Virus record (IMG/VR): IMGVR_UViG_3300027126_000001
Direction: 5' to 3' (one strand)
Length of the DNA stretch: 26,216 nucleotides
From: a virus
Taxonomy: Duplodnaviria; Heunggongvirae; Uroviricota; Caudoviricetes
Both the position numbers and the translations under genes were made by a program. This document shows, in pieces, positions 3,054-24,338 of this stretch. The notes under the pieces were generated by a model that saw only the letters and a program-made list of their open reading frames with translations, was not told where the DNA came from and searched no databases. How positions within the stretch are numbered: position 1 is the stretch's first letter; the number at the start of each line of letters is the position of its first letter.

Positions 3054-3055
3054 AA

Positions 3056-3361
3056 CTACTCTTGTGATTCTTTAATTGTTGCTAAGATCTCTCTGTCTGG
3101 TGTAATAAAGTATTCCTCTCCTTCAAAATCAATTCGTAACGAACCGATCTTAGGTACTAGTATTACATCTCCTACTTTAGCTTTGACTTCTATCCATGTA
3201 CCGAACTCTGATTGTCGACCTGGACCTACTGCGATAACTTCTCCCATTTCTGGTTTTTCTTTTCCCATGTCCGGAATAATAATCGTTCCGTACATCTCTT
3301 CTCCTGTCTGTACAGGTTTGATAAGAACTCTATCGTTCTGTGGTGATAACTTTTTTGGCAT
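3056..3361 (-). CDS. groS: Co-chaperonin GroES
   Basis: PQNDRVLIK, GIIIPD-like mobile loop (GTIIIPD), KPEMGEVIAVGPG, VKVGD-like segment; immediately upstream of groEL. Confidence 0.95.
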   Translation of the reverse strand: MPKKLSPQNDRVLIKPVQTGEEMYGTIIIPDMGKEKPEMGEVIAVGPGRQSEFGTWIEVKAKVGDVILVPKIGSLRIDFEGEEYFITPDREILATIKESQE

Positions 3362-3431: not shown

Positions 3432-3701
3432 CTAAAACTTATTGTCTAGATACGGTACACCCATAAAACCATGTATCCCTTCATTTTCTAACTGTATCTC
3501 ATACTGCTGCCAGTCTTCAGGTGATTGTGTTAAATCTCGCCAAGCAACATCGACACTGTATTTATCTGAGACTATAAAGCCCTCTTCGTCCTGTATAATA
3601 TGCCCTATTTCTACTATACTATGTAAATGGTACCCCAACTGTTGTATCTTTTGTTGAGCTTGTTGTTGTGTATCAAATTCGTATTTTGCAATTCTTATCA
3701 T
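3432..3701 (-). CDS. Hypothetical protein, companion of the fibre-like gene
   Basis: 89-aa ORF whose start overlaps the stop of 3698..5062 (ATGA). Confidence 0.65.
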   Translation of the reverse strand: MIRIAKYEFDTQQQAQQKIQQLGYHLHSIVEIGHIIQDEEGFIVSDKYSVDVAWRDLTQSPEDWQQYEIQLENEGIHGFMGVPYLDNKF

Positions 3702-5102: not shown

Positions 5103-7436
5103 TTAATGACCCTCGGCGAAGTTGTTTGCTATCTGCGGTGGTGCTTTTAAGGTTACTCCTGGAAGTTGTGTTGTGTTTTCCATCAACTCTTGTACATAAG
5201 GCATGAACATTTCTGCTTGATCTTCTCTTATGTTTATAATCAACTGGTCATGAATCTGAGCTTGTACTCTGGCATCTACTCCTAGTTCTTTTGCTTTTCT
5301 GTTAATTTGAATTGCTGCTCTGTTTACAACCGCTGCTGCAAGTGATTGTAACTGGTAGTTCAAGCAGTTGTTCAATCCATTTCGATAATCCCTATACATC
5401 TGCATTACAGGATCTTTCCCGTAGGTAGTCTCTAAATCCTTTCTAAATCTCCAATCTAATACTTGATCTCCAAATTTCTCAAAGATAAGTTTTACTTTTG
5501 GTAAGTGACGAATACGTCCTACTTTATTCTGAATAAAGCCATGCTTCTTTACCTGCTCTCTAGAGTTGATTCTCCATTCTTTTAATTGAGGAAAACCATC
5601 CAAGTATCCTTCCACTAAAGTGTCTGCTTCTTTCTGAGATATGTCTAAAGTCTTTGCTAATGCATATGCTTCCATTCCGTATGCAATTCCTAATGAGTAG
5701 GCTTTAGCTTGATTTCTTTTTACTGGGTCTAATTTTTTTAAAAAGATAGGTGATTTAGTATCAGGTGAAACACCGTTTGGATATTTTACTTTATCTTGAT
5801 CCAACTTCTCAGTTCTAATAGCGACAGTAGAATAGAAATCCCATCCGTTGTTAAAAATTTCTTGAAGATTAATATCACCTGCTACAGAAGCAAAGCAGTG
5901 AGGTTCTAGAGAAGTATAGTCATTATCGATTAACTTTCTTCCTACTCCTGCAATTAAAAACTCTCTTACTACATTTGTGTATTTTACAAGCAGTGGGGTA
6001 TCTTCTCCTTCCTCTTTAGGTTTAGGTAATTGCTGAGCATCTGAACCGTATCGTCCTGATACTGTACCGTTTTGTTTGTAATAGAAGTAATACCTTCCAT
6101 CCTCTTGTCCATCTAGAAACCTGTCGATGTAGGTTGACTTAATCTTTAGTAACTTATTATATGTTCTAAGATTATTTGCCCACTCGTATGTCTTAGACAA
6201 CTCCTCTAACATATCCATATCGAATTGATCTTGACCTTTTTTAGTCTGAGTGAGAGGTTTAATGCCCATGTACTTAAATGCAATCTCACCTAAGTGTCTT
6301 TTAGATTGAATATTCAAATACTCTCCTTCATTCTCTTCCTTCCACATTGACATAGAGATTCTAACAACTTCCATCTCATCTAATAGAGATAAGTCTCCTG
6401 TTAGTAAAAACTGCTTTACGTTACTCTCCTCTAACTCCTCAATAGCTTTTTTAGTTAATGTATACTTTCCGGTCTTAGCACTTCTTTCTAATGGAAGAGA
6501 ATGGAGCATAATTAAGTTCTGTGCCCAATTTCCTTTACTAGAAGGCGGGTAAGTATTTAGAGCTGTATCAACTACCCATTCTTTCGCTTCTGGGATATCT
6601 AAAATACTGTTAATTACGATTCTCTTATTTAATTCTAAATCGTTTGTAATATCCTCTTTAGTCTTTTCCAGTAATGGAAGATCTAGAGCTACCCCTAATT
6701 CCTCCATAGGTACTGTTACTTCTTTATAGAGAGGCATTACTTCGTCTTCAAAGAAGAATTTTTCTAGTTCTTCCTCTTTTAGTACTTTTATAAAGTGATT
6801 ACAAACTCTTAAAGTTAAGTCCGTATCAGCAGCAGCATACTTGGAAAGGATTGCCATATCTGCTTTAAAGATTTCGTAAAGATCTTTTGTAGTCGATCCA
6901 CCATTCTTCTTTATCGATTCCTTCAACTCCAACTGCTCTTGGTTGGCTGCTTTTTCAACATCTAACCCTATGTGCTGCTGGATGGAGATTGCTAAAGGCT
7001 TTAGTCCAAACACACCCATACCGGCACCCTCTTCCTGTACTGTATGCACAAGGAGCGCTGTATCTACCCAAAGATCTTCCAGTAATGATACTCCATAGAA
7101 GTTCTTAGTAATACGGCAGTCAAAAGAAGCATTGTGCATTACTAGCCTCTTACCCTTTAACATCGGTAGTAGCTTTTTAGTAATACCATGTGCTCCTTTT
7201 CCGCCAATGGTACATTCCTCCAATTGATTTGTTTCTGTATTCCATTTCTGAGTTGGAAGGTAAAATCCTATTCCTTCCTCGCCTGATACAGACCATCCTA
7301 CAACTTGATCTTTTCTTACGTTCAATCCTGTTGTTTCAGTATCGTAAGCAAGAACTTCTGATTGATTAATATGTTCGATAAGGAGGTTGATAGTCTCAAT
7401 ACTGTCGACGTGGTAGTACCTCTTTTCTATTTGCAT
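5103..7436 (-). CDS. polA: Family A DNA polymerase with 3'-5' exonuclease domain
   Basis: Exo I DTETTG, Exo II HNASFD, Exo III YAAADT; polymerase motifs TVSGRYGS, DYTSLEPH (A), RNQAKAYSLGIAYG (B), QIHDQL (C). Likely start MQIEKR at 7436 (ORF track starts at 7478). Confidence 0.95.
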   Translation of the reverse strand: MQIEKRYYHVDSIETINLLIEHINQSEVLAYDTETTGLNVRKDQVVGWSVSGEEGIGFYLPTQKWNTETNQLEECTIGGKGAHGITKKLLPMLKGKRLVMHNASFDCRITKNFYGVSLLEDLWVDTALLVHTVQEEGAGMGVFGLKPLAISIQQHIGLDVEKAANQEQLELKESIKKNGGSTTKDLYEIFKADMAILSKYAAADTDLTLRVCNHFIKVLKEEELEKFFFEDEVMPLYKEVTVPMEELGVALDLPLLEKTKEDITNDLELNKRIVINSILDIPEAKEWVVDTALNTYPPSSKGNWAQNLIMLHSLPLERSAKTGKYTLTKKAIEELEESNVKQFLLTGDLSLLDEMEVVRISMSMWKEENEGEYLNIQSKRHLGEIAFKYMGIKPLTQTKKGQDQFDMDMLEELSKTYEWANNLRTYNKLLKIKSTYIDRFLDGQEDGRYYFYYKQNGTVSGRYGSDAQQLPKPKEEGEDTPLLVKYTNVVREFLIAGVGRKLIDNDYTSLEPHCFASVAGDINLQEIFNNGWDFYSTVAIRTEKLDQDKVKYPNGVSPDTKSPIFLKKLDPVKRNQAKAYSLGIAYGMEAYALAKTLDISQKEADTLVEGYLDGFPQLKEWRINSREQVKKHGFIQNKVGRIRHLPKVKLIFEKFGDQVLDWRFRKDLETTYGKDPVMQMYRDYRNGLNNCLNYQLQSLAAAVVNRAAIQINRKAKELGVDARVQAQIHDQLIINIREDQAEMFMPYVQELMENTTQLPGVTLKAPPQIANNFAEGH

Positions 7437-7455
7437 AACTGATTTTATTATTGTG

Positions 7456-7486
7456 TAAAGGTAATAAAAGAGCTGCAATTAAGCAA
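7456..7486 (-). promoter_or_regulatory. Bacteroidota sigma-A-type promoter upstream of polA
   Basis: TTG(7486-7484)-N20-TACCTTTA(7463-7456). Confidence 0.6.
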
Positions 7487-7961
7487 CTCTTTCTTCAAAC
7501 TTTTTTATAATTACATTTGTTTCTACAGGTAACCATACCCCAATTGCTCCGTTCCTCAGGTATGACATCTTTATATTACTCTTTGATACTCTGTCATTAA
7601 TGTAATTTCTCATTTGATTTACATTATAGTAGTATACTTTTTCGGTAACTAAACTGTAACATATAATCCAATCCGACTTAGTTGTGTGAAACCATCCTAA
7701 TACCCCTTCTTTCTTATATAGTTCTAAAAAAGTTAGACCTGTTTCTGAGATATTTGTTTTAATATCCGCCCTATCCCAGGCATTAGTTTCTGTGTTTAAA
7801 AACTCTATATCTAAGCCTTTTTGTTGGTAGGCTTTGTTTTCGGTATAGTCTGTTAAATCCCGTACCTGTAACTTTTTGGATAAAATCTCAATAACGGCTT
7901 GTTCACCAAGACCTCCCTTTTTTAGATTCTCCAGGAAGGTCTGTTGTGTACCTGCCTCCAT
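7479..7961 (-). CDS. Putative PD-(D/E)XK restriction-endonuclease-fold protein
   Basis: GGLGEQAV helix, GLDIEF and ADIKTN (D-x-K) motifs, followed by FLELY. Confidence 0.55.
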   Translation of the reverse strand: MEAGTQQTFLENLKKGGLGEQAVIEILSKKLQVRDLTDYTENKAYQQKGLDIEFLNTETNAWDRADIKTNISETGLTFLELYKKEGVLGWFHTTKSDWIICYSLVTEKVYYYNVNQMRNYINDRVSKSNIKMSYLRNGAIGVWLPVETNVIIKKFEERVA

Positions 7962-8887
7962 TATTGTCGTAATGTTTTTGACATTCTACATTTAATGTCT
8001 GTAAAGAAGCTTGGAATTAATTCTTTATGTGAAGCTCTAATTGGATTAATATCTAATCCTCCTCTACGAGTATAAAGACAAGCTACCATTAATTCTTCTG
8101 GACTGTAAGCTTCTTTTAAGTGCATATAAATCATCTCACAAATTTCTTCATGGAAGTGACTTACTTGTCTATGACTTACAATATATTTTGCTAATGATTC
8201 TAAATCAGGAACAACTCCTGCTGTTGGCTTAATGTGAATAAATACATCACCCCAGTCTGGTTGGTTTGTTACTCTACAATTTGATCTTAATAGATTAGAC
8301 TGTACTTTTATTTCTCCAATTTCAAAGTCTTCAGCTACTTCTTCTGCTTTTAACTGTGTAGCATCTGAATGGTAAGAAGTAAATTCGATTTTGTTTAAGT
8401 CAACTAAAGCATCTAGTGGTGCATATCCTTTGAAGGCATAGCTTGGAGAATGATCTGAAGTGAACATCTCTACTTGTACTTTTGTTTGTAGTAAGTCAGA
8501 TAAGTCTTTCTTTACTCTTTGTTTTAGTAACTTAATACATTCATGATCTGTATCTCCTAATTGTGTCATATTGAATGAATTCAAATACAATTTAATTGAT
8601 TTAGACTCTACGTGAAGTTTTGAATCTGCTGGATACCAAATCTTTAGCATTCCAACTACTGGAAGTCCTTTTGTAGTAATTGCAGATACTTCATATGCAT
8701 TCCATACATCTCCTCCTACGAATGGAAGATTATTATCGTCAATTACATACGCTTCTCTATTCAAGTAACGTGGAATTTCTACCAATAGGCTCGGATCATA
8801 AGTATCGCTATAACCTGCTCCACCTACTTGTCCTAGATGCTTTCCTGCAATCTTTACAACTTCTGCTTGATTTAATTCTTGTGTCAT
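7961..8887 (-). CDS. queF: NADPH-dependent preQ0 reductase QueF (two-module type)
   Basis: QueF motif ESKSIKLYLNSF, catalytic SNCRVTNQPDWG, FHEEICE and YTRRGGLDINP. Confidence 0.93.
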   Translation of the reverse strand: MTQELNQAEVVKIAGKHLGQVGGAGYSDTYDPSLLVEIPRYLNREAYVIDDNNLPFVGGDVWNAYEVSAITTKGLPVVGMLKIWYPADSKLHVESKSIKLYLNSFNMTQLGDTDHECIKLLKQRVKKDLSDLLQTKVQVEMFTSDHSPSYAFKGYAPLDALVDLNKIEFTSYHSDATQLKAEEVAEDFEIGEIKVQSNLLRSNCRVTNQPDWGDVFIHIKPTAGVVPDLESLAKYIVSHRQVSHFHEEICEMIYMHLKEAYSPEELMVACLYTRRGGLDINPIRASHKELIPSFFTDIKCRMSKTLRQ

Positions 8888-8888
8888 A

Positions 8889-9413
8889 TTATTTTATGTA
8901 GTTTAATATTTGTTCAACTCTTTGATTAGGACTTCCTGTTACTGTTAAAAAATCTCCTCCAGCAAACTTAATTGACTTTAAGTTAATCTGAAATTGTTTA
9001 TCAATTGCTTCTCTCCATCCTTCATTCACACTTCTTACTCCATCATCTACTGATGCAAATTCGATAGGGAAGTAAATAAAATGTGTATACTGATGCCTAA
9101 CTCTTACCCAAGTATCTAATATGTAATCATATGCGCTAGTAGATAAGTTATCCATATAGGTAGAGTATACTACCAAATCCAAATAACATCTATCTAAGAT
9201 TACATCCTTAGGAGCTAATAGAGCTTCTAAATGGAAAGAAGAAATAGCAAGCTGTGTTTCAGAAGTTCCTGCTTCATTGATAGGAAATCCAAATTTACCA
9301 ACCGTTCTTGTTGATTCATTTATGAAATCATACTCAGGTAATTTACTTTTAAGTAATTCATATACTGTAGTCTTTCCTACTGATGATGCTCCTACTAATG
9401 CTATTCTTTTCAT
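8889..9413 (-). CDS. P-loop nucleotide-kinase-like ATPase (AAA_28/NadR-like)
   Basis: N-terminal Walker A GASSVGKTT, ILDRCYLD, DDGVR. Likely start MKRIALVG at 9413. Confidence 0.8.
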   Translation of the reverse strand: MKRIALVGASSVGKTTVYELLKSKLPEYDFINESTRTVGKFGFPINEAGTSETQLAISSFHLEALLAPKDVILDRCYLDLVVYSTYMDNLSTSAYDYILDTWVRVRHQYTHFIYFPIEFASVDDGVRSVNEGWREAIDKQFQINLKSIKFAGGDFLTVTGSPNQRVEQILNYIK

Positions 9414-9415
9414 AA

Positions 9416-9943
9416 CTAATTTTTTAAGAAATCTACCCAAAGACTTACTGATATACTATGTAATATATGAAATAATTCTTCAATCTCCAACCCTTTTATA
9501 GAAACTTTTCTACTACGAAGTATCTCTCCTTCATCTACTCCTTCTGTTACCCTATGAATAACACACCCAGAAGATTCTAATCCTATATCAAAAGCTTTTT
9601 GCTGAGGATCTTTTCCTTTTAATTCTGGATACTCAGTTATAAGTCCTGGATGCCCGTTATAGATTTCAAATCGATTACAGATATCTGCAGGCATGATTCG
9701 TAACCATCCATGTAGAGTTACCAAAGGATTTTCGTAACCGCTTAGTATCATTAACAATTCTTCCTCTGTAGGGTTATTCTCTACAAAAACTAAATGTTTA
9801 TCCTCTAAAGCCGGATGAATCTTTCTAAGATGCTCTGGTCTTTCGTTTGTTACTATCATATCAGGCCATCTTCCTAAAAGCTTTGATATTTCTACTATTT
9901 CACTTCCTGTCTGTGAGAAGAATGCTATGTGAGGTCTATACAT
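9416..9943 (-). CDS. PurN-like formyltransferase (candidate preQ1 formyltransferase, DpdN-like)
   Basis: YNGHPGLITEYPELKG and SGCVIHRVTEGVDEGEIL match the GAR-transformylase N-x-H-P and H-x-V-x3-D-x-G motifs. Confidence 0.85.
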   Translation of the reverse strand: MYRPHIAFFSQTGSEIVEISKLLGRWPDMIVTNERPEHLRKIHPALEDKHLVFVENNPTEEELLMILSGYENPLVTLHGWLRIMPADICNRFEIYNGHPGLITEYPELKGKDPQQKAFDIGLESSGCVIHRVTEGVDEGEILRSRKVSIKGLEIEELFHILHSISVSLWVDFLKN

Positions 9944-10118
9944 TTTTTACAGGTATTATGTTATCTTCATCTACAAAAAAGAACCGTTTCCCGACCCTTA
10001 AACTATATGCTGTTTTTCTTCCTAAATCTAAATTAATATATGCAAATACTTCTGCATCTATTATTTCATTATCAGAATTTAAAAGCACTTTTTCTCCTAT
10101 TTTATACCTTCTTTCCAT
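9936..10118 (-). CDS. Hypothetical 60-aa protein (SH3-like beta pattern possible)
   Basis: Overlaps both neighbours within the operon; YKIGEKVLL start. Confidence 0.6.
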   Translation of the reverse strand: MERRYKIGEKVLLNSDNEIIDAEVFAYINLDLGRKTAYSLRVGKRFFFVDEDNIIPVKNV

Positions 10119-10896
10119 TTACAAGCCATCTAAATTTATGGATGTTCTGAAGAATCATATTCGTATCTTCTGGTACGTAATTGATTAGTTCAAATAACTT
10201 TTGAGACTCTTTTGACCATAGTCCATCTGCTCTATACTCAACTCCTTTTATACCATGTACAACTGGATTAGAAGTATCTAAAGAATAGATCCATTTATAA
10301 TCTGAGTAGAAAGAAAACTCTTGAGGTAATCCACATCCTAATAGGTGATGCTTCTTCTCTTCGTTTATTACACCGTCTCTCAATAAGTCTCCCAGTAGCT
10401 TAACCCTTCCTAGCATCCAACTAACATACCTGTTAGGATGAGAAATTGTCTTTGTATAATACGAATAGTCGAATGAAATTGCAATCATATCTACATTTGC
10501 AATTTTATCCATATACTCATAACAAGTCTTAATTTGACTATAAGTCTTTCCTTGAACAACTCCTATCTTCTTTCCTGGAAGATCTCTATATTTGTAATTC
10601 CATTCAGTCATTTGCTTAACAGTCTTCTTTGCATCTTCTAAAGCATCTGGAACTATATACCAATCTGGTTTTAATTCTAGTACCCATCCTGCAAACTTCT
10701 CTGCATCAAAAGCTTCTTCTAATTCAAATATAGAATTATCTAAAATAATTTCTCTACCTGCTTCTTTAGCTTCTTGAAACTGTTTTAAGTATTCTGGATC
10801 TTCTTCAAATAAATGTACAAGTGCATAATCATAATCAGTATGCTTTTGTACTTCTTTAAATATACTCTTCGGTGATTCGTGTGCTATCTTAATCAT
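10102..10896 (-). CDS. dpdA: TGT-fold 7-deazaguanine transglycosylase (DpdA-like, compact)
   Basis: Motifs aligning by eye with TGT: ILDNSIFE (DSGGF), IVPD, GVVQG, HHLLG (YLMG), SLDTSNP (catalytic FD). No Cys-rich Zn site. Located in the que cluster. Confidence 0.72.
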   Translation of the reverse strand: MIKIAHESPKSIFKEVQKHTDYDYALVHLFEEDPEYLKQFQEAKEAGREIILDNSIFELEEAFDAEKFAGWVLELKPDWYIVPDALEDAKKTVKQMTEWNYKYRDLPGKKIGVVQGKTYSQIKTCYEYMDKIANVDMIAISFDYSYYTKTISHPNRYVSWMLGRVKLLGDLLRDGVINEEKKHHLLGCGLPQEFSFYSDYKWIYSLDTSNPVVHGIKGVEYRADGLWSKESQKLFELINYVPEDTNMILQNIHKFRWLVNGKKV

Positions 10897-11092
10897 TCTC
10901 TTCTGATGTTATAGTTTCTAAATCTTCTATTAATCCTCCTAATTGTGATTGCAATGCTTCCATAGCTTCTGCAATTTGATTATCAATAGCCATTTCAATT
11001 GCCTTGTACGCTATAGACACCGGTATCATCTCTGTCTTTAGATCTTCTATAAAGATCTTATTCTTTTCTATATACTCTACTGCCTCTTGCAT
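10889..11092 (-). CDS. Hypothetical protein
   Basis: 67-aa acidic helical ORF coupled to both neighbours. Confidence 0.65.
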   Translation of the reverse strand: MQEAVEYIEKNKIFIEDLKTEMIPVSIAYKAIEMAIDNQIAEAMEALQSQLGGLIEDLETITSEEND

Positions 11093-11616
11093 TACTCTCC
11101 TGTTAACTGTTTTAAGTATGACTTCTGAAGTTCTTTGTCTGTGAAGAACTGTTTTAAGTTAGGACGGAAGTAGTTTACATTCTTCATTACTTTTCTATCT
11201 CTTGTTCTATAAACAACAAAATAGTCTCCAACTTTTTCGTAATGACACTCCTCACCTTGCTCACTCGATCTTTGAATGACAGTTGCTTTAGCTTCTTCTT
11301 CTGTTTGGCAAGCTTTAGATAAATTTGACGCTTGAACCTCTTGATAGGCTGGCCATATCTTATCCTTAAGGCCATGTAACATAGTACCGTTCCCAGTGGC
11401 AACATAAGTAATATCGCAAAGAGCGTCCAGAACCTCAACGATGTCTCCTCTTTCGCAAGCTTCTCTATATTCTTCAAGTTCTTCAAGGATGAAATCGTAT
11501 ACGAACTCCCACTCTTTTCTCTCTGGTACTGTTGGTTCATAGTTATTAGGTTTGCCCATTACGGCATTAAATTCTTCTACCTCGTCAATAAAGGGTACTT
11601 TTGGATCTGTTATCAT
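11092..11616 (-). CDS. MazG-like/PRA-PH all-alpha NTP pyrophosphohydrolase
   Basis: VEEFN..., ILEELEEY...EVLDALCDITYV (EExxE...ExxD metal-binding motif), VQASNLSK. Confidence 0.85.
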   Translation of the reverse strand: MITDPKVPFIDEVEEFNAVMGKPNNYEPTVPERKEWEFVYDFILEELEEYREACERGDIVEVLDALCDITYVATGNGTMLHGLKDKIWPAYQEVQASNLSKACQTEEEAKATVIQRSSEQGEECHYEKVGDYFVVYRTRDRKVMKNVNYFRPNLKQFFTDKELQKSYLKQLTGE

Positions 11617-11631
11617 AACTTTACTTTTTAT

Positions 11632-11662
11632 TTAATATAGGAAATTGCCTCCGAAGAGGCAA
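11632..11662 (-). promoter_or_regulatory. Bacteroidota sigma-A-type promoter for the NTP-PPase/dpdA/formyltransferase/kinase/queF run
   Basis: TTG(11662-11660)-N20-TATATTAA(11639-11632). Confidence 0.7.
11645..11662 (-). terminator. Hairpin terminator with UUCG loop
   Basis: TTGCCTC-TTCG-GAGGCAA followed by TTT on the minus strand; a T7 run flanks it on the plus strand. Confidence 0.6.
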
Positions 11663-11668
11663 CTTTTT

Positions 11669-11869
11669 TTATTCTTCAATTACTTTTAGAATTTTAGATT
11701 GATTAACTCCTACTACTGAAAAGTTAGACTCTCCGTCGAATTCTTTATAGATTTTTGCTTCTGCTTCTGTAGCTGAAACTGCATCTACTAGATATAATTC
11801 TTTTACTCTTTGGATACGACCTCTGTCGTTTTCGTGCTCCAATTGCACGGTTACTTGCCAATAATTCAT
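11669..11869 (-). CDS. DUF4494-like small protein
   Basis: WQVTV..E...KELYLVDAVSATEAEAKI resembles the Bacteroidota DUF4494 pattern YLVDAxSxTEAEA. Confidence 0.55.
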   Translation of the reverse strand: MNYWQVTVQLEHENDRGRIQRVKELYLVDAVSATEAEAKIYKEFDGESNFSVVGVNQSKILKVIEE

Positions 11870-11880
11870 AGTGTTTAATT

Positions 11881-12588
11881 TTAGTTTTTATAACCTTTTG
11901 TGAACTGATAGAACTCTGCTCTTGCTGAATCTTCATTTAAGAAACATCCAGTTAACTTTGCAGTCTTCATTGAAGCTCCTTCATGCTTTACTCCTCTACA
12001 GCTTACACAATTGTGACCTGCTTCAATCATAACTGCTACCCCTAGATTACCTTCACAGATTTTATCTACTGCATTATGAATTGCAACTGTTAATTGTTCT
12101 TGGATTGCTCCTCTACGGGCAAACTGCTCTACAATTCTATTTAGTTTTGAAAGCCCTACTACCTTTCCATCTGGTGAAGGAACATAACCAATGTGAACTT
12201 TTCCTGTAATAGTCTGGTGGTGGTGAGAGCACATTGAGGTAAGAGGAATATTTCCTTCGAATACAATTCCATCATAACCATCTGAAGGGAATGCTGTAAC
12301 TCTTGTTAATGGTTCAAATCGTCCGGCCCATAAATCGTTTACATAAGCCTTTGCAACTCTTTTAGGAGTATCAGAAGAGTTCGGATCATTACTCCAATCG
12401 CATCCTAAAGCTGAAAGGAATTCACCAAATGCTACTGCTGCTTTGTCGATAATATCCTGCTTTTCTTCTTGAGTTAACCTTGCTTCTGGTCCTTCTATTA
12501 ATTGCTTTTTAGCCAATTGAGAGGAGATACCATTTGCGAATCCGGCTTGTACTAGTTCTGTACCGTCGATAAATTTTTTACTTGACAT
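11881..12588 (-). CDS. folE: GTP cyclohydrolase I
   Basis: DTPKRVAK, SMCSHH, GLSKLNRIV, RRGAIQEQLT, HNCVSCRGV. Confidence 0.96.
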   Translation of the reverse strand: MSSKKFIDGTELVQAGFANGISSQLAKKQLIEGPEARLTQEEKQDIIDKAAVAFGEFLSALGCDWSNDPNSSDTPKRVAKAYVNDLWAGRFEPLTRVTAFPSDGYDGIVFEGNIPLTSMCSHHHQTITGKVHIGYVPSPDGKVVGLSKLNRIVEQFARRGAIQEQLTVAIHNAVDKICEGNLGVAVMIEAGHNCVSCRGVKHEGASMKTAKLTGCFLNEDSARAEFYQFTKGYKN

Positions 12589-12628
12589 ATAAGATTGTTT
12601 TTATGGAGGTTCTACGACTCCGTTTCTA

Positions 12629-12659
12629 TTAATATAACACTTTTTATTTTATTATACAA
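12629..12659 (-). promoter_or_regulatory. Bacteroidota sigma-A-type promoter upstream of folE
   Basis: TTG(12659-12657)-N20-TATATTAA(12636-12629). Confidence 0.7.
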
Positions 12660-13055
12660 CTACTTTTTTAAATAATCCTGTATACTTTCACTATCACTTC
12701 TCTCCCAAGGATAAACAATCCACTCTGTTCCTGTTTCCTTTGCATAAAAGTCAGGAGTAAATGATGCTGTAGGTTTGTAGTGAAGTGTTGCTGTAAATCC
12801 TCCTACTGCTCTTTTTAGTGTTTCTCCTGTGTCGCAAATGTCATCCACTACCAAAGTATCCTTATTTGTTTTACTTACGTAAGGTATGTTTAATTTATGT
12901 GAGATCATTACTGCTGGTATCAATCCTCCTCTTTGTATTCCTGTAATAGATTTGATCTGTGCGCCTGATTGCTTTATTGTATTGCATAGGTCTTCAACTA
13001 AAATGTTAATATCATCCCAGCTTAAATAAACCTTGTTTCCTACTTTTAGTGCCAT
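12660..13055 (-). CDS. Purine phosphoribosyltransferase (Gpt/XGPRT-like)
   Basis: LSWDDI, GIQRGGLIPA, PRPP-binding LVVDDICDTGETL, WIVYPWE. Confidence 0.9.
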   Translation of the reverse strand: MALKVGNKVYLSWDDINILVEDLCNTIKQSGAQIKSITGIQRGGLIPAVMISHKLNIPYVSKTNKDTLVVDDICDTGETLKRAVGGFTATLHYKPTASFTPDFYAKETGTEWIVYPWERSDSESIQDYLKK

Positions 13056-13336
13056 TATATTCTCGCTATTGTTATACCTTCTGCTCCTACAATTTTCATC
13101 TGCGAAATCATATCATCTGCTGGTTGTTGTGGATCTGTTTCCTCCAACACATAGTTGATAAGTTCATCTATTGATACCTTGTCTTTGAATCCTGTCTTAC
13201 CTGAGTCACTTACTATTAACTCTAAATCTCCCTCTTTGGTTAATTTATAGTCCCAAATATAAAGCCCATCTGCTTTTGGGTAACTTTTTGAAAGCTCTCT
13301 GTCTCCTGCTAAATCTATTAAATCTTTTAGTGTCAT
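13055..13336 (-). CDS. Hypothetical protein
   Basis: 93-aa ORF tiling in the operon. Confidence 0.65.
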   Translation of the reverse strand: MTLKDLIDLAGDRELSKSYPKADGLYIWDYKLTKEGDLELIVSDSGKTGFKDKVSIDELINYVLEETDPQQPADDMISQMKIVGAEGITIARI

Positions 13337-13351
13337 AACTGTGTTTTTTAT

Positions 13352-13543
13352 TTACTTAATTGAATACTTGGTTTTACCGTCTGGTGATTGTGCTGCTATT
13401 TCTCCGTTTGCTAGAACTGTCAGTTGTAGGAAGTAGGTTGTTAGTAGTAGGTGTTTTACTTGTGCTGCTTCTATCTGTCCTTTCTTCCATAATGTATGAA
13501 GTACTGTCAATGTTTCAAACTGTGTTGCGTTTCTTACTGCCAT
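13352..13543 (-). CDS. Hypothetical protein
   Basis: 63-aa ORF on the coding strand filling the gap. Confidence 0.6.
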   Translation of the reverse strand: MAVRNATQFETLTVLHTLWKKGQIEAAQVKHLLLTTYFLQLTVLANGEIAAQSPDGKTKYSIK

Positions 13544-13550
13544 TTTACTT

Positions 13551-14135
13551 TTACTTTACTACCATTCTAACCATACATGCTCTACTTGCCTCAGGCATAT
13601 ATTCATCTGGGTTTGATAAGACTTTCTCAAGTTTATCACGAAGAGATTGTTTCATCATTTCATCTTGATACTCTTTGCTGCCAATATCTTGTGGAAATGT
13701 AGGATTGAAAGTAAGAGTGATTGTTCGGTAAGGTTCAAAATTTTCAGGATTATATATTAAAGGTCCAAATGTGCATCCCTCTTTTACCGGTTTGAAAATC
13801 ACTGTAGGGTCGTACATTTTTGGAGAAAACATAATTTGGTAAACATATGCGGTTTTTCCTTCATAGATTAGATCATTATCTAATAGTTTATGTGTGGACG
13901 TTTGAAAAGCCTTACCTGGTTCATTAGCTCCCCCAGTGTGAGTTATCCATTTTACTTCTTTAAAATGGAAATGTTCTTTTAAAATCCCTTCTGCAAGTTG
14001 TCTCTGCACTTTAGACATTTCAACTACGGCAGTAGGTTCTACTACAGTTGGGGATGAGTATGTAGCAAAGTGATGTCTATTGTCTGTGATAGGACCTAGA
14101 AGGTCAATAAATTTTTGTGTGATTTGATTTGTCAT
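13551..14135 (-). CDS. Hypothetical protein
   Basis: 194-aa ORF, no recognised motif. Confidence 0.7.
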   Translation of the reverse strand: MTNQITQKFIDLLGPITDNRHHFATYSSPTVVEPTAVVEMSKVQRQLAEGILKEHFHFKEVKWITHTGGANEPGKAFQTSTHKLLDNDLIYEGKTAYVYQIMFSPKMYDPTVIFKPVKEGCTFGPLIYNPENFEPYRTITLTFNPTFPQDIGSKEYQDEMMKQSLRDKLEKVLSNPDEYMPEASRACMVRMVVK

Positions 14136-14139
14136 AGTA

Positions 14140-14442
14140 TTATACTTCTCTTTGGTCTACTCCGTACTTCTCTTTAATTCCCATTACAAATTCCTTTGTC
14201 ATTCTACCCATAGCACCACTTGTCATAAATGGACTATTAACTTCATCGTAATGCTCTCTCCTATAAACGACTACTTCGCTTTTAAGTTGGTTATCTTCAA
14301 AATAGAAGAGCATACCTGGGATAAATTCTTTATCCTTTGTTGCCTCTAGAAATTTAGCCTTTGATTCTTCATACCGTTCTGGTAGAGGTTTTAGGTCTTT
14401 TAAGTTTAGGCTGCTGAAGTCATTTATTTGCTCTTTGTTCAT
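14140..14442 (-). CDS. Hypothetical protein
   Basis: 100-aa ORF with ATGA overlap to the HNH gene. Confidence 0.65.
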   Translation of the reverse strand: MNKEQINDFSSLNLKDLKPLPERYEESKAKFLEATKDKEFIPGMLFYFEDNQLKSEVVVYRREHYDEVNSPFMTSGAMGRMTKEFVMGIKEKYGVDQREV

Positions 14443-14945
14443 TTTTCTTTACTGTTTTTATAAGGTTTTCTTTTTTGTCGCCTTCCTTCTTCGTATGCTC
14501 TTTTTAAGCTCTCTGATACTTTTTTGGATCTGGCTTCTGGATCTTTAAGTGGGGATTTGATTGCTTTGTGGGATGTTTTTCGAATCTTATCTACTGTTTC
14601 TGGTTTCATTCCCTGTACCCATCCCTCCTCTATAATTCTAGGATCATTTACTTTCATTTGACGTTGCCTATCTCCTTTGTGAAACCACTTACTTCCTGCA
14701 AGTACCCAAGTCTCAAAAACTGTTCCCTCTTTCATTTTTCTCATTCTACTTGCCACTGCACTTGCTTCGGCTATATCTCCTTGAATAAGATGGATGTTGT
14801 AATGCTCTTCTATGGATACACATATTAGATTTTCTATAGAATTATTTTCTCTATTTCCATCTATATGATGTATTTCGTAAGTCCATCCATTCTTATCTTT
14901 AGGAATATCTCCATAATGCTTTTTCCAAATTCTTCTATAATCCAT
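14439..14945 (-). CDS. Free-standing HNH homing endonuclease
   Basis: EIHHIDGNRENNSIENLICVSIEEHYNIH HNH motif with a basic C-terminal DNA-binding tail. Confidence 0.85.
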   Translation of the reverse strand: MDYRRIWKKHYGDIPKDKNGWTYEIHHIDGNRENNSIENLICVSIEEHYNIHLIQGDIAEASAVASRMRKMKEGTVFETWVLAGSKWFHKGDRQRQMKVNDPRIIEEGWVQGMKPETVDKIRKTSHKAIKSPLKDPEARSKKVSESLKRAYEEGRRQKRKPYKNSKEK

Positions 14946-14956
14946 ACTATTGTTTT

Positions 14957-14969
14957 ATTATAAATAGTA
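14957..14969 (-). promoter_or_regulatory. Second-class upstream motif TACTATTTATAAT
   Basis: Exact copy of the 13-mer, 12 nt upstream of the HNH start. Confidence 0.55.
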
Positions 14970-14991
14970 GGCATTAACCAAAAGGCATAGA

Positions 14992-15771
14992 CTAAACTTC
15001 TCGAGCGTCTTGGAAAGCTATTATGTGAGGTCTCCAAGTCAACCTGTATCCATTATCTCGAACCCAATCAAACATTTTTGGATATGATTTGAATAAAGCC
15101 TCTCTTGTATCTCCAGCTGGCATGAAATATACTTTATCTTGTGGTATGTCTAATATCTTAATACATGCCATAATCTCTTCCAATGCTTCTTGATCCTCTC
15201 CGTCCCATACTGGTTTTAAGTGGTAGTCAGAGTGATAAGCAATTGATTTGGACATTGCATCGTAATTAAGTCTTAGCTTATTATGTTGTTTGATCATTCT
15301 TTCGTCTGTAATGTCTCCTTGAGGTGTTGCAATGCCAATCTTAGGGACAGAATTGCTGAACTTAGGGGAGATTGATAATAGATTAATTGGGTAATCCGTT
15401 TCAAGAAAATGACTTCCTTCGGTCTCAATTGTAATGAAAATATTTCTTTCATGTGCAAAATGTGTTAATTCGTTTACTAATGCTGGATGCATTGTAGGTG
15501 ATCCTCCTGTTAGCATCATCTCTGTGATGTGAGGATTCTTATCGTACATGTCGATAATGTCTTGAAAAGTGGAACTTCCCTTTTCTGGATGAATAGAACT
15601 ATACCAACTGTCGCACCATCCTCCATCTCCGAACCAGCAGCGGTGAGTACATCCAGTGGTGCGAATTACTACTGTAGGATATCCCGCTCTACTTCCCTCA
15701 CTCTGAACTGCAGTATACAATTCAATAATAGGAAGTGTCTTATTAAAATCCTCAATTCTTTTTAATCCCAT
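14992..15771 (-). CDS. queE: 7-carboxy-7-deazaguanine synthase QueE (radical SAM)
   Basis: VQSEGSRAGYPTVVIRTTGC, LTGGSP, TIETEG, SISPK, PRxHI-like end (WRPHII). Cluster motif CTHRCWFGDGGWC. Confidence 0.92.
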   Translation of the reverse strand: MGLKRIEDFNKTLPIIELYTAVQSEGSRAGYPTVVIRTTGCTHRCWFGDGGWCDSWYSSIHPEKGSSTFQDIIDMYDKNPHITEMMLTGGSPTMHPALVNELTHFAHERNIFITIETEGSHFLETDYPINLLSISPKFSNSVPKIGIATPQGDITDERMIKQHNKLRLNYDAMSKSIAYHSDYHLKPVWDGEDQEALEEIMACIKILDIPQDKVYFMPAGDTREALFKSYPKMFDWVRDNGYRLTWRPHIIAFQDAREV

Positions 15772-16291
15772 TTTTATTTCTATTTTTTAATGTTTCTGAT
15801 ATTTTTCTCTTTTGTTCCTCTGACATCGGAATGCCTTTATTTGTTCCTACCATTCCTTTCTTTGCTTTAGAAATCTTTTCTCCAAATTCCTTTGGCATTA
15901 TCTTTCCTGCATTTGAAATTCTTTTTCCTTCTTGGTAGGCTCTTTTTAGTCCTTCTGAGATTCTTTGTTTATGCTCTATGCTTTTTTTTGCTATCTGCTC
16001 TTTTATAATCCTATACATGTTTGCAGAAACCTTATACCTATTTTGATTAGGAGCTTCCATACTTGCCATCATCCATAAAGCATACTTTATTTTTTGACTC
16101 TTAGGATAAATCTCAGTAAGAAGTAGATGTGCTATAAAATGCTCTTTGGCTGTCAGTTCTACTAAATTATTTATATCATCTGTTCCTTTTACGCATTTAG
16201 GAATAATGTGATGAAGCTCTTTATATCCTTCGACTGTCTTTCTTTCTTTAGCTTTTAGTATTAGCTGGCTGTAAATTTTTTGATAATCCAT
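15752..16291 (-). CDS. Free-standing HNH homing endonuclease (MobE-like) with NUMOD3-type repeats
   Basis: ELHHIIPKCVKGTDDINNLVELTAKEHFIAHLLL; C-terminal SEEQKRKISETLK-type repeats. Confidence 0.87.
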   Translation of the reverse strand: MDYQKIYSQLILKAKERKTVEGYKELHHIIPKCVKGTDDINNLVELTAKEHFIAHLLLTEIYPKSQKIKYALWMMASMEAPNQNRYKVSANMYRIIKEQIAKKSIEHKQRISEGLKRAYQEGKRISNAGKIMPKEFGEKISKAKKGMVGTNKGIPMSEEQKRKISETLKNRNKNGIKKN

Positions 16292-16299
16292 ACTCTTTT

Positions 16300-16312
16300 A
16301 TTATAAATAGTA
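16300..16312 (-). promoter_or_regulatory. Second-class upstream motif TACTATTTATAAT
   Basis: Exact copy of the 13-mer, 9 nt upstream of the HNH start. Confidence 0.55.
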
Positions 16313-16333
16313 GTAGATTTCCGTTACCAGCTG

Positions 16334-16645
16334 TCACACCTGTTTTTTATTCATTTCATCTCTAGCATACAGAGATATAAACTCAGGTGTTGTTCTTCCT
16401 TTAGGTATTAGTATTTCTGCTAGGGGAGCTGCTATTGAAGTGTCTCCTGGATGTAGTATTAGTATTTCTTCATCCATGTCAAGTGTTACTAGAAACTGTA
16501 CTACCTGTCTTACCGTTAAAGGTTTTCTCTGATCTTGATTAATTACTAGTTTTGTTTTACCTTCTAATTTATCTGCTAGAGATATCTTTCCTGTATTATC
16601 ATCTAAAAAACCATTCTCTTGTAGAAACTTATTATCCAATGTCAT
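16334..16645 (-). CDS. Hypothetical protein
   Basis: Likely start MTLDNK at 16645 (ORF track starts at 16666). Confidence 0.6.
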   Translation of the reverse strand: MTLDNKFLQENGFLDDNTGKISLADKLEGKTKLVINQDQRKPLTVRQVVQFLVTLDMDEEILILHPGDTSIAAPLAEILIPKGRTTPEFISLYARDEMNKKQV

Positions 16646-16841
16646 AATGTTCCCAAATAGCCTCAATATGCTTTCTTAATTTACTCATAGCTTCATCAGC
16701 TTCTTTACATAGCTGAACTAACTCTGGATCTTCTTCTCCGTTGTATCCGTAATTCTCTATCCAATATCCAAATCCTTGATTATCGATTTCTCCAAATAAT
16801 TGTTCTGCTTCTTCTTCTGATAGTTTAATTTTACTCTCCAT
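16632..16841 (-). CDS. Hypothetical acidic protein
   Basis: 69-aa ORF overlapping the queD stop. Confidence 0.65.
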   Translation of the reverse strand: MESKIKLSEEEAEQLFGEIDNQGFGYWIENYGYNGEEDPELVQLCKEADEAMSKLRKHIEAIWEHYDIG

Positions 16842-17292
16842 ATATCGCTGAGTTTTTGTTATGTTCTTTAAATTCTACACTCACTACTCTTACTCTACCT
16901 TCTGTTTCTATTTGTATAAATTCAGATACTTTTTCGTAAATGTATTTTGCAAATTGTTCTGCTCCCGTTGCTGGAATTATTCTTAGTTGTATTATTTCTT
17001 CGTTGTGCATCTCTAATGCTTTTGGTAAGAATGGATCATCTTTTGCAATGATATAAGTATGGTCGAACATATAGTCCATCCACTCTTTAGGAGGCATACC
17101 ATGGATCTTATTCTTAGCTCTCTTCATTCCTCCAAAGTCCCACACCCAGTTTCTTTCGTCTAAGTCTCCTTCAAAGATAATTTTGAAAGAAATACCGTAC
17201 CCGTGAAGAAATCTACAATGAGTTCCTTCTGCTTTCCATTGACGGAATACTGTAGAGTACCCATCAAATACTTTTGTTGATTGAAATTTCAT
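16831..17292 (-). CDS. queD: 6-carboxy-5,6,7,8-tetrahydropterin synthase QueD
   Basis: HCRFLHGY, WVWDFGGMK, FDHTYI, TGAEQFAKYI, EHNKNSAIY (T-fold PTPS/QueD). Confidence 0.92.
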   Translation of the reverse strand: MKFQSTKVFDGYSTVFRQWKAEGTHCRFLHGYGISFKIIFEGDLDERNWVWDFGGMKRAKNKIHGMPPKEWMDYMFDHTYIIAKDDPFLPKALEMHNEEIIQLRIIPATGAEQFAKYIYEKVSEFIQIETEGRVRVVSVEFKEHNKNSAIYGE

Positions 17293-22408: not shown

Positions 22409-22521
22409 ATCTTATTTATTTTACAATGACATTTTCGGCATCGATAGTATTTCTTTTTGTAATTATATGCCCACCTATGTTTACAAAATAGTTGTTTAAA
22501 AATCTTGTAAATCTGAATCAT
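22405..22521 (-). CDS. 38-aa Cys-rich peptide
   Basis: Manual translation MIQIYKIFKQLFCKHRWAYNYKKKYYRCRKCHCKINKI. Fills the gap exactly, with ATGA overlap. Confidence 0.55.
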   Translation of the reverse strand: MIQIYKIFKQLFCKHRWAYNYKKKYYRCRKCHCKINKI

Positions 22522-22522
22522 C

Positions 22523-24315: not shown

Positions 24316-24329
24316 GCTATTTCCTTTAG

Positions 24330-24338
24330 TATAAATAG
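24330..24338 (-). promoter_or_regulatory. Core of second-class motif (CTATTTATA)
   Basis: 15 nt upstream of the GIY-YIG ATG at 24315. Confidence 0.45.

Follow-up and report, generated by a model that had tools for sequence, protein, structure and literature searches.

A 7-deazaguanine DNA-modification gene cluster predicting fdPreQ1 in an Immutovirus-like phage from a riverine metagenome

Results

Gene cluster and closest relative

The interval 7961-17292 of IMGVR_UViG_3300027126_000001, of which the whole analysed stretch of 26,216 nucleotides is called the window below, is very probably (probability about 0.85) a 7-deazaguanine DNA-modification cluster giving fdPreQ1 in place of dG. The interval runs exactly from the stop of queF to the start of queD, and all cluster genes are intact ORFs on the minus strand, comprising queF, a P-loop kinase-like gene, dpdN, dpdA3, a MazG-like gene, folE, a purine PRTase gene, queE and queD (Table 1). 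The window belongs to an Immutovirus-like phage whose genome, of about 160 kb, was assembled from riverine metagenomic DNA, and the host of its relatives is Flavobacterium.

All six genes named in an earlier note on this DNA (folE, queD, queE, queF, a dpdA-like gene and a PurN-like gene) were recovered as intact ORFs. Five of them matched Pfam in HMM searches, and the dpdA-like gene, without a Pfam match, was identified by its PHROG family and by a modelled TGT fold; the E-values that identify the genes of the cluster are far beyond chance. The interval was also found to contain the kinase-like, MazG-like and PRTase genes and two HNH cassettes, which that note had not listed. The scores of QueF, FolE, QueE and QueD are below the NCBIfam curated equivalog cut-offs, which counts against the assignment.

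The fdPreQ1 precedent with DpdN in a Flavobacterium phage, given in the note, proved correct: complete replacement of dG by fdPreQ1 was measured in immuto_2-6A by Cui et al. (NAR 2023, PMC10516641), with fdPreQ1 at 345,000 per 10^6 nucleotides, dG absent and no dPreQ1. The DNA of that phage resists restriction enzymes having G in their recognition sites, and its gp067, a PF00551 protein, was named DpdN (PMC10516641). The synteny comparison proposed in the note gave 84.5% DNA identity over 75% of the window in a shared gene order, with 80-97% identity per protein across the cluster genes. The genes from queD to queF are identical in order and orientation, and PolA and GroES/GroEL lie beyond them. 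Since the cluster is a close copy of the sole gene set known for whole-genome replacement of G by formyl-preQ1, the window phage is, judged from its sequence, a new member of the published system and not a new system. Orthology to immuto_2-6A and the retention of catalytic residues thus support the DNA-modification reading of the note.

The two phages differ by about 15% DNA divergence, by the two HNH cassettes around queE, which are only in the window, by the genes between queF and PolA, which are not alike, and by an additional 454-aa Laminin_G_3 protein in the window. Immuto_2-6A, on which the chemistry was measured, came from the Baltic Sea, and the window phage is riverine. The fdPreQ1 identity, the 100% replacement and the restriction resistance are taken from the literature on this relative (PMC10516641), and we infer that the window phage makes fdPreQ1 DNA likewise; most or all dG of its virion DNA would be present as fdPreQ1, and the DNA would be resistant to G-reading restriction enzymes.

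Table 1. Features of the cluster, with identity to the immuto_2-6A orthologue
Feature	Coordinates	Strand	Description and family matches	Identity (orthologue)
queF	7961..8887	-	Bimodular NADPH-dependent preQ0 reductase, 308 aa; Pfam QueF_N 3.2e-33, QueF 1.3e-20	82% (gp69)
Kinase-like gene	8889..9413	-	P-loop nucleoside/nucleotide-kinase-like; Pfam AAA_28 6.9e-12, phrog_2107	
dpdN	9416..9943	-	PurN-like formyltransferase, 175 aa; Formyl_trans_N 1.6e-13	90.9% (gp67, DpdN)
Small ORF	9936..10118	-	60 aa, between dpdA3 and dpdN	54% (gp66)
dpdA3	10102..10896	-	Compact TGT-fold transglycosylase, 264 aa; phrog_19058 7.9e-54, no Pfam match	93.6% (gp65)
Small ORF	10889..11092	-	67 aa	37% (gp64)
MazG-like gene	11092..11616	-	NTP pyrophosphohydrolase, 174 aa; Pfam PRA-PH 1.4e-10, phrog_671 8.4e-29	97% (gp63)
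GC-rich hairpin	11645..11662	.	Terminator-like scan match	
Small ORF	11669..11869	-	66 aa; DUF4494 annotation in immuto_2-6A	94% (gp62)
folE	11881..12588	-	GTP cyclohydrolase I, 235 aa; Pfam GTP_cyclohydroI 8.5e-45	90.6% (gp61)
PRTase gene	12660..13055	-	Short purine (xanthine/guanine-type) PRTase, 131 aa; Pfam Pribosyltran; NCBIfam XPRT 3.3e-15, below cut-off	80% (gp60)
Two small conserved ORFs	13055..13543	-	93 and 63 aa	82% and 65% (gp59, gp58)
Insertion 1	13551..14945	-	194-aa and 100-aa ORFs, family not assigned; HNH_3 endonuclease, 168 aa	
queE	14992..15771	-	Radical-SAM CDG synthase, 259 aa; Radical_SAM 3.3e-07, phrog_2076 (QueE-like) 3.1e-53	91.4% (gp57)
Insertion 2	15752..16666	-	HNH homing endonuclease, 179 aa, and 110-aa ORF; phrog_655 3.2e-42	
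Small ORF	16632..16841	-	69 aa	86% (gp56)
queD-like gene	16831..17292	-	T-fold protein, phage variant, 153 aa; Pfam PTPS 2.7e-14, phrog_2389 8.8e-41	86.9% (gp55)

Proposed synthesis of preQ1

In the proposed pathway, GTP would be converted to H2NTP by FolE, which has the Zn-site segments CSHH and HNCVSCRG, and H2NTP to CPH4 by the QueD-like protein. The motif of the latter is CRFLHGY as compared with CxxxHGH, the first Zn His is replaced by Phe, and only one of the three canonical Zn histidines is left, which counts against the favoured explanation. CDG would be yielded by QueE, whose cysteines C41, C45 and C53 are invariant with the spacing Cx3Cx7C in place of Cx3Cx2C, which also counts against it. 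The same QueD variant was found in phiSM, Iggy and phi19:2, and the QueD and QueE variants both occur in phages that make 7-deazaguanine DNA.

The conversion of CDG to preQ0 is assigned to QueC, which was not found when 40 ORFs of the window, including every ORF of whole-QueC length, were scanned against Pfam. As queC is not in the window, this step would depend on the evidence of relatives or on a host gene, which counts against the favoured explanation. Both of the related genomes that were searchable carry QueC, 11 kb and about 30 kb away from queD, respectively, and it lies at a distance of 9 kb or less in 34 of the best 80 DpdA3 loci. Reduction of preQ0 to preQ1 would be carried out by the bimodular QueF, which matched Vibrio cholerae QueF (3bp1) at 1.6e-46 and retains the catalytic Cys segment SNC..NQPDWG and the QueF motif ESKSIKLY.

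Transglycosylase DpdA3

The exchange of guanine for the 7-deazaguanine base is attributed to DpdA3, a putative minimal TGT-fold transglycosylase. Its structure was predicted with a pLDDT of 96.7, all of the Foldseek top 50 matches were TGTs, and Z values of 17.5-18.1 were obtained against ArcTGT, bacterial TGT and DpdA (7ui4). D53, D84 and D207 are invariant, and the HLLG..DtSnP segment lines up with the part of bacterial DpdA that holds the Asp256 nucleophile (residue roles from PMC10164549).

FolE, QueD, QueE and QueF also make the precursor of queuosine in bacteria, and the transglycosylase of the cluster is TGT-folded, as would suit a preQ1 supply for queuosine in host or phage tRNA instead of DNA. 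This is extremely improbable, considering that the tRNA search gave no tRNA gene in the window, that QueA, QueG and QueH were not found by Pfam scans, that the CxCxxC Zn motif is absent from the DpdA3 sequence, which has no Zn subdomain typical of tRNA TGTs, and that DpdA3 is 93.6% identical to the one of a phage with fully modified DNA (Table 1).

Formyltransferase DpdN

For the final step, the 7-aminomethyl nitrogen would be formylated by DpdN, whether before or after base insertion, with 10-formyl-tetrahydrofolate as the predicted donor by analogy with PurN. The PurN catalytic residues Asn96, His98 and Asp137 align with the triad of PurN structures and do not vary among 26 relatives, in which the family-specific motif P-x-LKGKDPQ and the segment FSQTGSE are invariant as well.

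DpdN shares the Formyl_trans_N core and the Asn-His-Asp triad with PurN, its nearest family in both Pfam and NCBIfam, and has partial matches to PurN-like genes of cyanophages; it might accordingly be an ordinary purine-synthesis auxiliary PurN as in cyanophages, with the cluster ending at dPreQ1. That reading is very improbable. With 55 bits, DpdN stays below the PurN cut-off of 150; it is also shorter (175 aa versus about 210 aa), the match covers residues 53-150 only, FSQTGSE stands where PurN has its N-terminal GAR-phosphate loop, and the LKGKDPQ motif is peculiar to the DpdN family. DpdN also adjoins DpdA3 at nearly all loci (57/60 DpdN loci linked to DpdA3, 56/60 to QueF), no purine-synthesis gene other than the PurN-like one was seen in the window by Pfam scans, and the phage of the 91% identical orthologue was found to contain fdPreQ1 and not dPreQ1.

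Conserved module and the timing of base insertion

The P-loop kinase-like gene, for which ATG at 9413 is the likely start (a longer TTG ORF extends to 9440), is a constant and previously unremarked member of the fdPreQ1 gene set. It was found between dpdN and queF in 45/60 DpdN loci and 68/80 DpdA3 loci, and the order DpdA3-DpdN-kinase-QueF is kept down to about 40% DpdN identity. In IMG/VR, 73 of the best 80 DpdA3 loci also had DpdN; the modification, called rare in the earlier note, is thus rare among isolated phages only, and viral contigs from metagenomes commonly carry the module. Besides the kinase-like protein, this module includes the MazG-like hydrolase and the purine PRTase. The PRTase matches the PDB purine PRTases 1vdm and 4trb and E. 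coli XGPRT, with the PRPP loop VVDDICDTGET kept.

In the published post-replicative model, the base would be inserted after replication; the reading preferred here within that model is that guanine released by DpdA3 would be recycled by the PRTase through GMP to GTP for FolE, and the kinase would handle nucleosides or nucleotides. The same fdPreQ1 DNA could be reached by a pre-replicative route, unlikely but worth serious consideration, in which the substrate for base exchange by DpdA3 is not DNA but a free nucleoside or nucleotide. The MazG-like protein would convert dGTP to dGMP, the kinase-like protein would phosphorylate the DpdA3 product, host kinases would take it on to the triphosphate, and this would be incorporated by the adjacent PolA of the phage, in parallel with the T4 logic of dCTPase, dCMP hydroxymethylase and dNMP kinase; the PRTase would recycle guanine or make a 7-deazaguanine ribonucleotide.

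The pre-replicative route is favoured by the fold of the P-loop protein, which is that of a nucleoside/nucleotide kinase and not of a DNA-ATPase (pLDDT 90.8; NadR ribosylnicotinamide kinase Z 18.2, deoxyguanosine kinase Z 15.9, and thymidylate kinases), by its constancy at the loci, and by its CP220 homologue gp057 (31% identity, 3e-18), which flanks DpdA3 beside a fusion of an HD phosphohydrolase with a P-loop domain. In phi19:2 (phiST-type), the DpdA3 neighbours are an unrelated P-loop protein and MazG. G replacement is complete in all three lineages, ADG nucleoside was observed in CP220-infected cells, and the attempts of the authors to make DpdA3 work on DNA in E. coli failed (PMC10516641); DpdA3 is also only 264 aa long, without Zn subdomain, and acidic (pI 5.8). 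On the other hand, every DpdA tested (bDpdA, DpdA1 and DpdA2) acts on DNA (PMC10516641, PMC10164549), and the fold and catalytic Asp pattern of DpdA3 match polymer-acting TGTs equally well. The support comes from fold and gene neighbourhood, while kinases, MazG and PRTases are common among phage auxiliary genes, the phi19:2 P-loop and MazG proteins have no BLASTP similarity to those of the window, and guanine salvage explains the PRTase as well.

Comparison with other 7-deazaguanine systems

In the Campylobacter phage CP220 group (Firehammervirus), dG is fully replaced by dADG, and DpdA3 (gp056), 42% identical to that of the window, is directly adjoined by the kinase-like homologue. The group differs in its dADG end product, in an HD phosphohydrolase-P-loop fusion replacing MazG and in genes scattered among structural genes; a 25-kb stretch around its DpdA3 was examined and had neither QueF nor DpdN.

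Cellulophaga phages phiST and phi19:2, in which dG is fully replaced by 7-deazaguanine with DpdA3 and DpdL, are similar in QueD (66% identity to phi19:2), in DpdA3 (gp042; 23%, 2e-9) and in the clustering of QueE, FolE, a MazG-like protein, a P-loop protein and DpdA3 beside the replicative polymerase in phi19:2. They differ in lacking QueC, QueF and DpdN, in carrying the QueD paralogue DpdL, and in P-loop and MazG proteins without detectable similarity to those of the window.

Cellulophaga phage phiSM and Vibrio phage VH7D, with dPreQ1 and methyl-dPreQ1 made via DpdM, share the preQ1 pathway with QueF, a subsequent 7-aminomethyl decoration and the QueD variant CxxxHGY, but their decoration is a methylation by DpdM, of unrelated fold, and modified nucleotides make up only about 0.1-0.4% of the total. 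The bacterial Dpd system (DpdA/DpdB/DpdC; 7ui4) likewise uses a TGT-fold DNA transglycosylase with three catalytic/base-binding Asp, whereas bDpdA is about 400 aa long with a DpdA-specific insertion, depends on DpdB (a ParB-like ATPase), places preQ0 at <0.1% of G and works alongside a restriction module.

Hairpin, small ORFs and insertions

The hairpin separates an upstream group of genes, from queD to folE plus a small ORF, from a downstream one (mazG to queF); the same genome holds a 31-nt copy at another site, and related copies were found in G001. The 93-aa and 63-aa ORFs gave no match in family searches.

Both insertions are missing from immuto_2-6A. At insertion 1, the blastn alignment stops at 13547 and starts again at 14993, with adjacent immuto positions; at insertion 2, it stops at 15762 and starts again at 16632. 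The endonuclease of insertion 1 matched HNH_3 (7.4e-14) and phrog_12324, and the 194-aa ORF, alone of that insertion, is also in G001 (96%). At insertion 2, a 97% identical copy was found in another viral contig, L025, and an upstream repeat is common to the HNH genes of both insertions.

Gene content of the cluster and its relation to the immuto phages

All ORFs of the window, whatever their length, were carried by the minus strand. The six genes on which an earlier note had based the proposal of a 7-deazaguanine cluster (folE, queD, queE, queF, a dpdA-like gene and a PurN-like gene, the products of the last two being designated DpdA3 and DpdN, respectively) were all present and intact, and the cluster extended exactly from 7961 to 17292. 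In the HMM searches by which that proposal was to be checked, QueF matched both the QueF_N and the QueF domains and DpdN matched the PF00551 core (Formyl_trans_N, Pfam, 1.6e-13). Family assignments were based on Pfam, PHROGs and NCBIfam. A GC hairpin separates the queD-to-folE portion of the cluster from the mazG-to-queF portion. About 33 kb off, the genome contains a 31-nt copy of it, and the nearest related genome record (G001) has similar copies; the hairpin may serve as a terminator or as some regulatory element.

Features of the cluster and of its surroundings, from the highest to the lowest coordinates, with protein identities to phage immuto_2-6A
Feature	Coordinates	Strand	Identity (%)	Remarks
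Duplicated block, one copy	25679-26216			
cREC_REC receiver-domain protein	25073-25483	-		between the duplicated blocks
I-HmuI/NUMOD-type endonuclease	23692-24384	-		between the duplicated blocks
Duplicated block, other copy	22518-23079			
Thymidylate synthase	18767-19945	-		past queD
queD-like	16831-17292	-	86.9	
69-aa ORF		-		between queD-like gene and next insertion
Insertion: 110-aa ORF, HNH endonuclease	15752-16666	-		
44-nt common region, first copy	16273-16316			
queE	14992-15771	-	91.4	
44-nt common region, second copy	14927-14970			
Insertion: HNH_3 endonuclease, 100-aa ORF, 194-aa ORF	13551-14945	-		
Two small ORFs		-		between insertion and PRTase
Short purine phosphoribosyltransferase (PRTase)	12660-13055	-	80	
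folE	11881-12588	-	90.6	
66-aa ORF		-		between folE and hairpin
GC hairpin	11645-11662			TTGCCTC-TTCG-GAGGCAA
MazG-like NTP pyrophosphohydrolase	11092-11616	-	97	
67-aa ORF		-		between MazG-like gene and dpdA3
dpdA-like gene (dpdA3)	10102-10896	-	93.6	
60-aa ORF		-		between dpdA3 and dpdN
PurN-like gene (dpdN)	9416-9943	-	90.9	
P-loop protein	8889-9413	-	86	
queF	7961-8887	-	82	
Family A DNA polymerase (PolA)	5103-7478	-	95	past queF, followed by GroES, GroEL
89-aa ORF, 454-aa protein	3432-5062	-		between GroES and PolA
GroES, GroEL	1419-3361	-		

When the cluster was compared by megablast with 50,697 phage records, the only matches were to three isolates of Flavobacterium "immuto" phages, which account for four records including a RefSeq copy, with 84.5% DNA identity and 75% query coverage. 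The remaining 25% was accounted for by two insertions, both with HNH homing endonucleases, which border queE exactly at the gene junctions. The annotated region of immuto_2-6A agrees with the cluster in gene content and gene order.

DNA of immuto_2-6A was analysed by LC-UV-MS/MS, by which no dG and 345,000 fdPreQ1 per 10^6 nucleotides were found (Cui et al., Nucleic Acids Res 2023, PMC10516641); the identity of fdPreQ1 was backed by a synthetic standard, and the DNA withstood restriction enzymes whose sites contain G (PMC10516641). In the same work the PF00551 protein gp067 was named DpdN as the predicted preQ1 or dPreQ1 formyltransferase, and the authors' attempts to obtain DpdA3 activity in E. 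coli failed (PMC10516641). The precedent named in the earlier note, fdPreQ1 together with DpdN in a Flavobacterium phage, was therefore correct, and that type phage and the window are closely related. Orthology to immuto_2-6A with retained gene order supports the fdPreQ1 interpretation, and it supports the placement of the window within the published fdPreQ1 system, as one more member of environmental origin and not as a new kind of system. Chemically, fdPreQ1 is known from one phage isolate, to which the window adds a river relative with the whole cluster intact. DNA of phages with such a cluster would resist many restriction enzymes, and odd behaviour in nanopore or amplification-free sequencing may follow.

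The transglycosylase DpdA3 and the formyltransferase DpdN

No sequence match of DpdA3 was obtained in Pfam (TGT included), in NCBIfam or, by phmmer, in the PDB. Among 1.84 billion cluster representatives 1549 relatives were found, and 45 of these were aligned for the AlphaFold model (pLDDT 96.7). The best 50 PDB matches of the model by Foldseek were all tRNA-guanine transglycosylases (about 1e-7), and in VIA-align Z scores of 17.5-18.1 (rmsd about 3 A, about 231 residues aligned) were reached by archaeosine TGT, by bacterial TGT and by the bacterial DpdA structure 7ui4, the last of which is a DNA preQ0 insertase (Z 17.6). The fold search thus settled the modelled fold as that of a TGT (TIM-barrel). 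D53, D84 and D207 were invariant in the 45 sequences, with a spacing like that of Asp95, Asp130 and Asp256 of bacterial DpdA, which serve as general acid/base, in base binding and as nucleophile, respectively (PMC10164549). The 45-homologue profile aligned HLLG...iDtSnP, the D207 segment, with HLLGIARP...SIDSTTP of 7ui4, the alignment being weak (E 0.24). Neither a CxCxxC nor a CxxC motif was found in the 264 residues of DpdA3, so the mark of the Zn subdomain of bacterial TGT is missing. Identity was 93.6% to immuto gp65, 42% to gp056 of the Campylobacter phage CP220 and 23% (2e-9) to gp042 of the Cellulophaga phage phi19:2; since the CP220-group protein and phi19:2 gp042 represent the other two named DpdA3 lineages, sequence similarity places the protein in DpdA3. 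It is predicted to exchange guanine in DNA for a 7-deazaguanine.

DpdN was aligned with immuto gp067 over 175 of 175 residues (90.9% identity), and its match to cyanophage PurN-like proteins was limited to residues 58-159 (about 30-35%). Residues 53-150 aligned with PurN structures, and N96, H98 and D137 aligned with the PurN catalytic triad and were invariant across 26 relatives (40-93% identity); we take them to correspond to N106, H108 and D144 of E. coli PurN. Also invariant in the 26 relatives were FSQTGSE at the N-terminus, standing in place of the GAR-phosphate loop of PurN, and the family-specific motif P-x-LKGKDPQ. Together with its co-encoding in one cluster with DpdA3, FolE, QueD, QueE and QueF, these features support the assignment of DpdN to the group 1 formyltransferases of Cui et al. 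2023, predicted to formylate preQ1 or dPreQ1.

Enzymes of the preQ1 pathway

QueF is bimodular and was aligned over its full length with Vibrio cholerae QueF (1.6e-46). SNC...NQPDWG is kept, SNC202 with the catalytic Cys being aligned with the SNC of the V. cholerae enzyme, and ESKSIK is present at residue 94 (consensus E(S/L)K(S/A)hK); the TIGR03138 score was 260.6, below the cut-off of 293.45. FolE matched PF01227 (8.5e-45, 174 of 179 positions) and contains the segments CSHH and HNCVSC, which presumably provide the Cys/His Zn ligands as in the E. coli enzyme. QueE has three invariant Cys spaced Cx3Cx7C, the second and third being separated by as many as 33 residues in a distant relative, and matched phrog_2076 (3.1e-53), with every NCBIfam QueE model far below its cut-off.

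The queD-like product reads CRFLHGY and not CxxxHGH, and Phe stands where QueD of CP220 has the first Zn His, so that two of the three canonical Zn ligands and the canonical QueD signature are missing. It was filed, on its sequence, as a phage QueD-like T-fold protein (phrog_2389, 8.8e-41) and not as a canonical QueD. The same variant (CxxxHGY with Phe) occurs in the Cellulophaga phages phiSM and phi19:2, in Pseudomonas phage Iggy and in the present clade, and a single PTPS-family gene is present in each of immuto, G001 and CP220. Because of both observations it was considered a common phage form, and its reading as a degenerate QueD, defective in this phage in particular, was dropped, phiSM, Iggy and phi19:2 being phages with modified DNA. 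The family with the missing Zn ligands is the one assumed to make CPH4.

No queC was found when 40 ORFs of the window, including every ORF long enough for QueC, were searched against Pfam. QueC is encoded 11 kb from queD in immuto and about 30 kb off in G001, and it lay within 9 kb of DpdA3 in 34 of the best 80 of more than 571 IMG/VR stretches with a DpdA3 relative. As queC belongs to the cluster in many relatives but lies 11-30 kb away in the closest ones, the cluster has been rearranged within the lineage. The many relatives with queC within 9 kb of dpdA3 have 70-80% DpdA3 identity and include L084-L088, L091-L093 and L104-L111 among others from IMG/VR. The likely source contig of the window runs leftwards, away from the side where relatives carry queC.

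The kinase-like gene and the route of base insertion

The P-loop and MazG-like proteins had no significant match in the PDB by sequence only. The model of the P-loop protein (pLDDT 90.8) matched the ribosylnicotinamide kinase domain of NadR (Z 18.2) and human deoxyguanosine kinase (Z 15.9), and further thymidylate and deoxynucleoside kinases; its predicted fold is that of a small-molecule (nucleoside/nucleotide) kinase. CP220 gp057, directly adjoining the DpdA3 of CP220, is a homologue (31%, 3e-18), and on the other side of that DpdA3 an HD phosphohydrolase is fused to a P-loop domain. In phi19:2 (phiST type), the interval from DpdA3 to folE encodes a MazG together with another P-loop protein; a common origin with the P-loop and MazG-like proteins of the window was rejected since BLASTP gave no similarity, and the likeness was taken as functional analogy only. 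The PRTase matched archaeal purine PRTases and E. coli XGPRT, with the PRPP loop kept. The fdPreQ1 paper mentions no kinase or phosphoribosyltransferase and describes the gene adjoining DpdA3 in phiST as one without homologues in other 7-deazaguanine phages (PMC10516641). The module nearly always includes the kinase-like gene, and in Campylobacter phages the gene adjoins DpdA3, which is new with respect to that paper and offers a handle on how DpdA3 phages attain 100% replacement and on what DpdN formylates.

Provided that fdPreQ1 is made, the base is probably inserted after replication, as published (probability roughly 0.6). G in DNA would be exchanged by DpdA3, freeing one guanine per exchange, the freed guanine would be sent back to GTP for FolE by the PRTase and kinases, and DpdN would act on the base or on DNA. 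DNA has been the substrate of every DpdA tested so far, which favours this order of events over an unlikely one in which the module DpdA3-DpdN-kinase-QueF works before replication. In the latter, the substrates of DpdA3 would be nucleosides or nucleotides in free form, and the kinase would supply the phage polymerase with the modified deoxynucleotide. The NTP pyrophosphohydrolase, the base-exchanging enzyme and the kinase might accordingly be read as a T4-like trio making a modified dNTP, a doubtful proposal that likewise presupposes fdPreQ1 formation. Such a pre-replicative route is favoured by the complete G replacement in all three DpdA3 lineages, by the report of an ADG nucleoside in cells infected with CP220 (PMC10516641) and by the small, acidic and Zn-less DpdA3; a search of the literature collection used gave nothing on a nucleotide-pool route for 7-deazaguanines. 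If it were true, full replacement of G by fdPreQ1, and the dADG/dDG of CP220/phiST, would precede replication, like hmC in T4.

Distribution of the module

The earlier note had called the modification rare, which holds for isolates only. Among GenBank viruses, only four DpdN-type proteins were found in the published survey (PMC10516641). At least 120 full-length DpdN relatives (62-93% identity) were present among metagenome 90%-identity clusters, and in IMG/VR relatives with 37-93% identity were encoded at 60 loci, where DpdA3 (57/60), QueF (56/60) and the P-loop protein (45/60) were found within 9 kb. The order DpdA3-DpdN-P-loop-QueF was retained even at 40-57% DpdN identity. In the opposite direction, the best 80 of the more than 571 DpdA3 stretches contained DpdN in 73, the P-loop protein in 68 and QueF in 61. 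The DpdA3-DpdN-QueF system is thus rare among isolates but not in nature, and, with the module in dozens of viral contigs, full replacement of guanine by fdPreQ1 may be common in phages of the metagenomes sampled.

The whole stretch was found in one riverine metagenome run, which is probably its source, and smaller shares of it were contained in freshwater and lake metagenomes. Contigs of riverine metatranscriptome libraries from three other studies contained the stretch wholly or partly, and contigs of three such libraries covered the cluster, those of one library completely at 99-100% identity; they were not counted as proof of transcription, because RNA libraries can contain phage DNA and the contigs show neither strand nor level.

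Insertions and other features of the window

The two HNH cassettes are free-standing on either side of queE, are not present in the immuto phages and have a common 44-nt upstream and start region. A 97% identical copy of the 179-aa HNH protein is encoded in another viral contig (L025). In G001, a related HNH gene lies at another place in the cluster, and the 5' end of queE occurs a second time, about 1.1 kb upstream of queE itself.

Phage GroEL (544 aa) and GroES are 89% and 72% identical to those of immuto, respectively. The 454-aa protein encoded between GroES and PolA has a C-terminal Laminin_G_3 (concanavalin-like) domain, and immuto has nothing at this place. Two blocks of about 560 bp, at a distance of 3.1 kb from each other, are 96% identical, so that a Pfam-less ORF is present twice (216 aa and at least 170 aa). 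The thymidylate synthase has 392 aa against the 266 positions of the Pfam model, which it matched end to end, with about 120 extra internal residues; its immuto orthologue is 55% identical and longer still.
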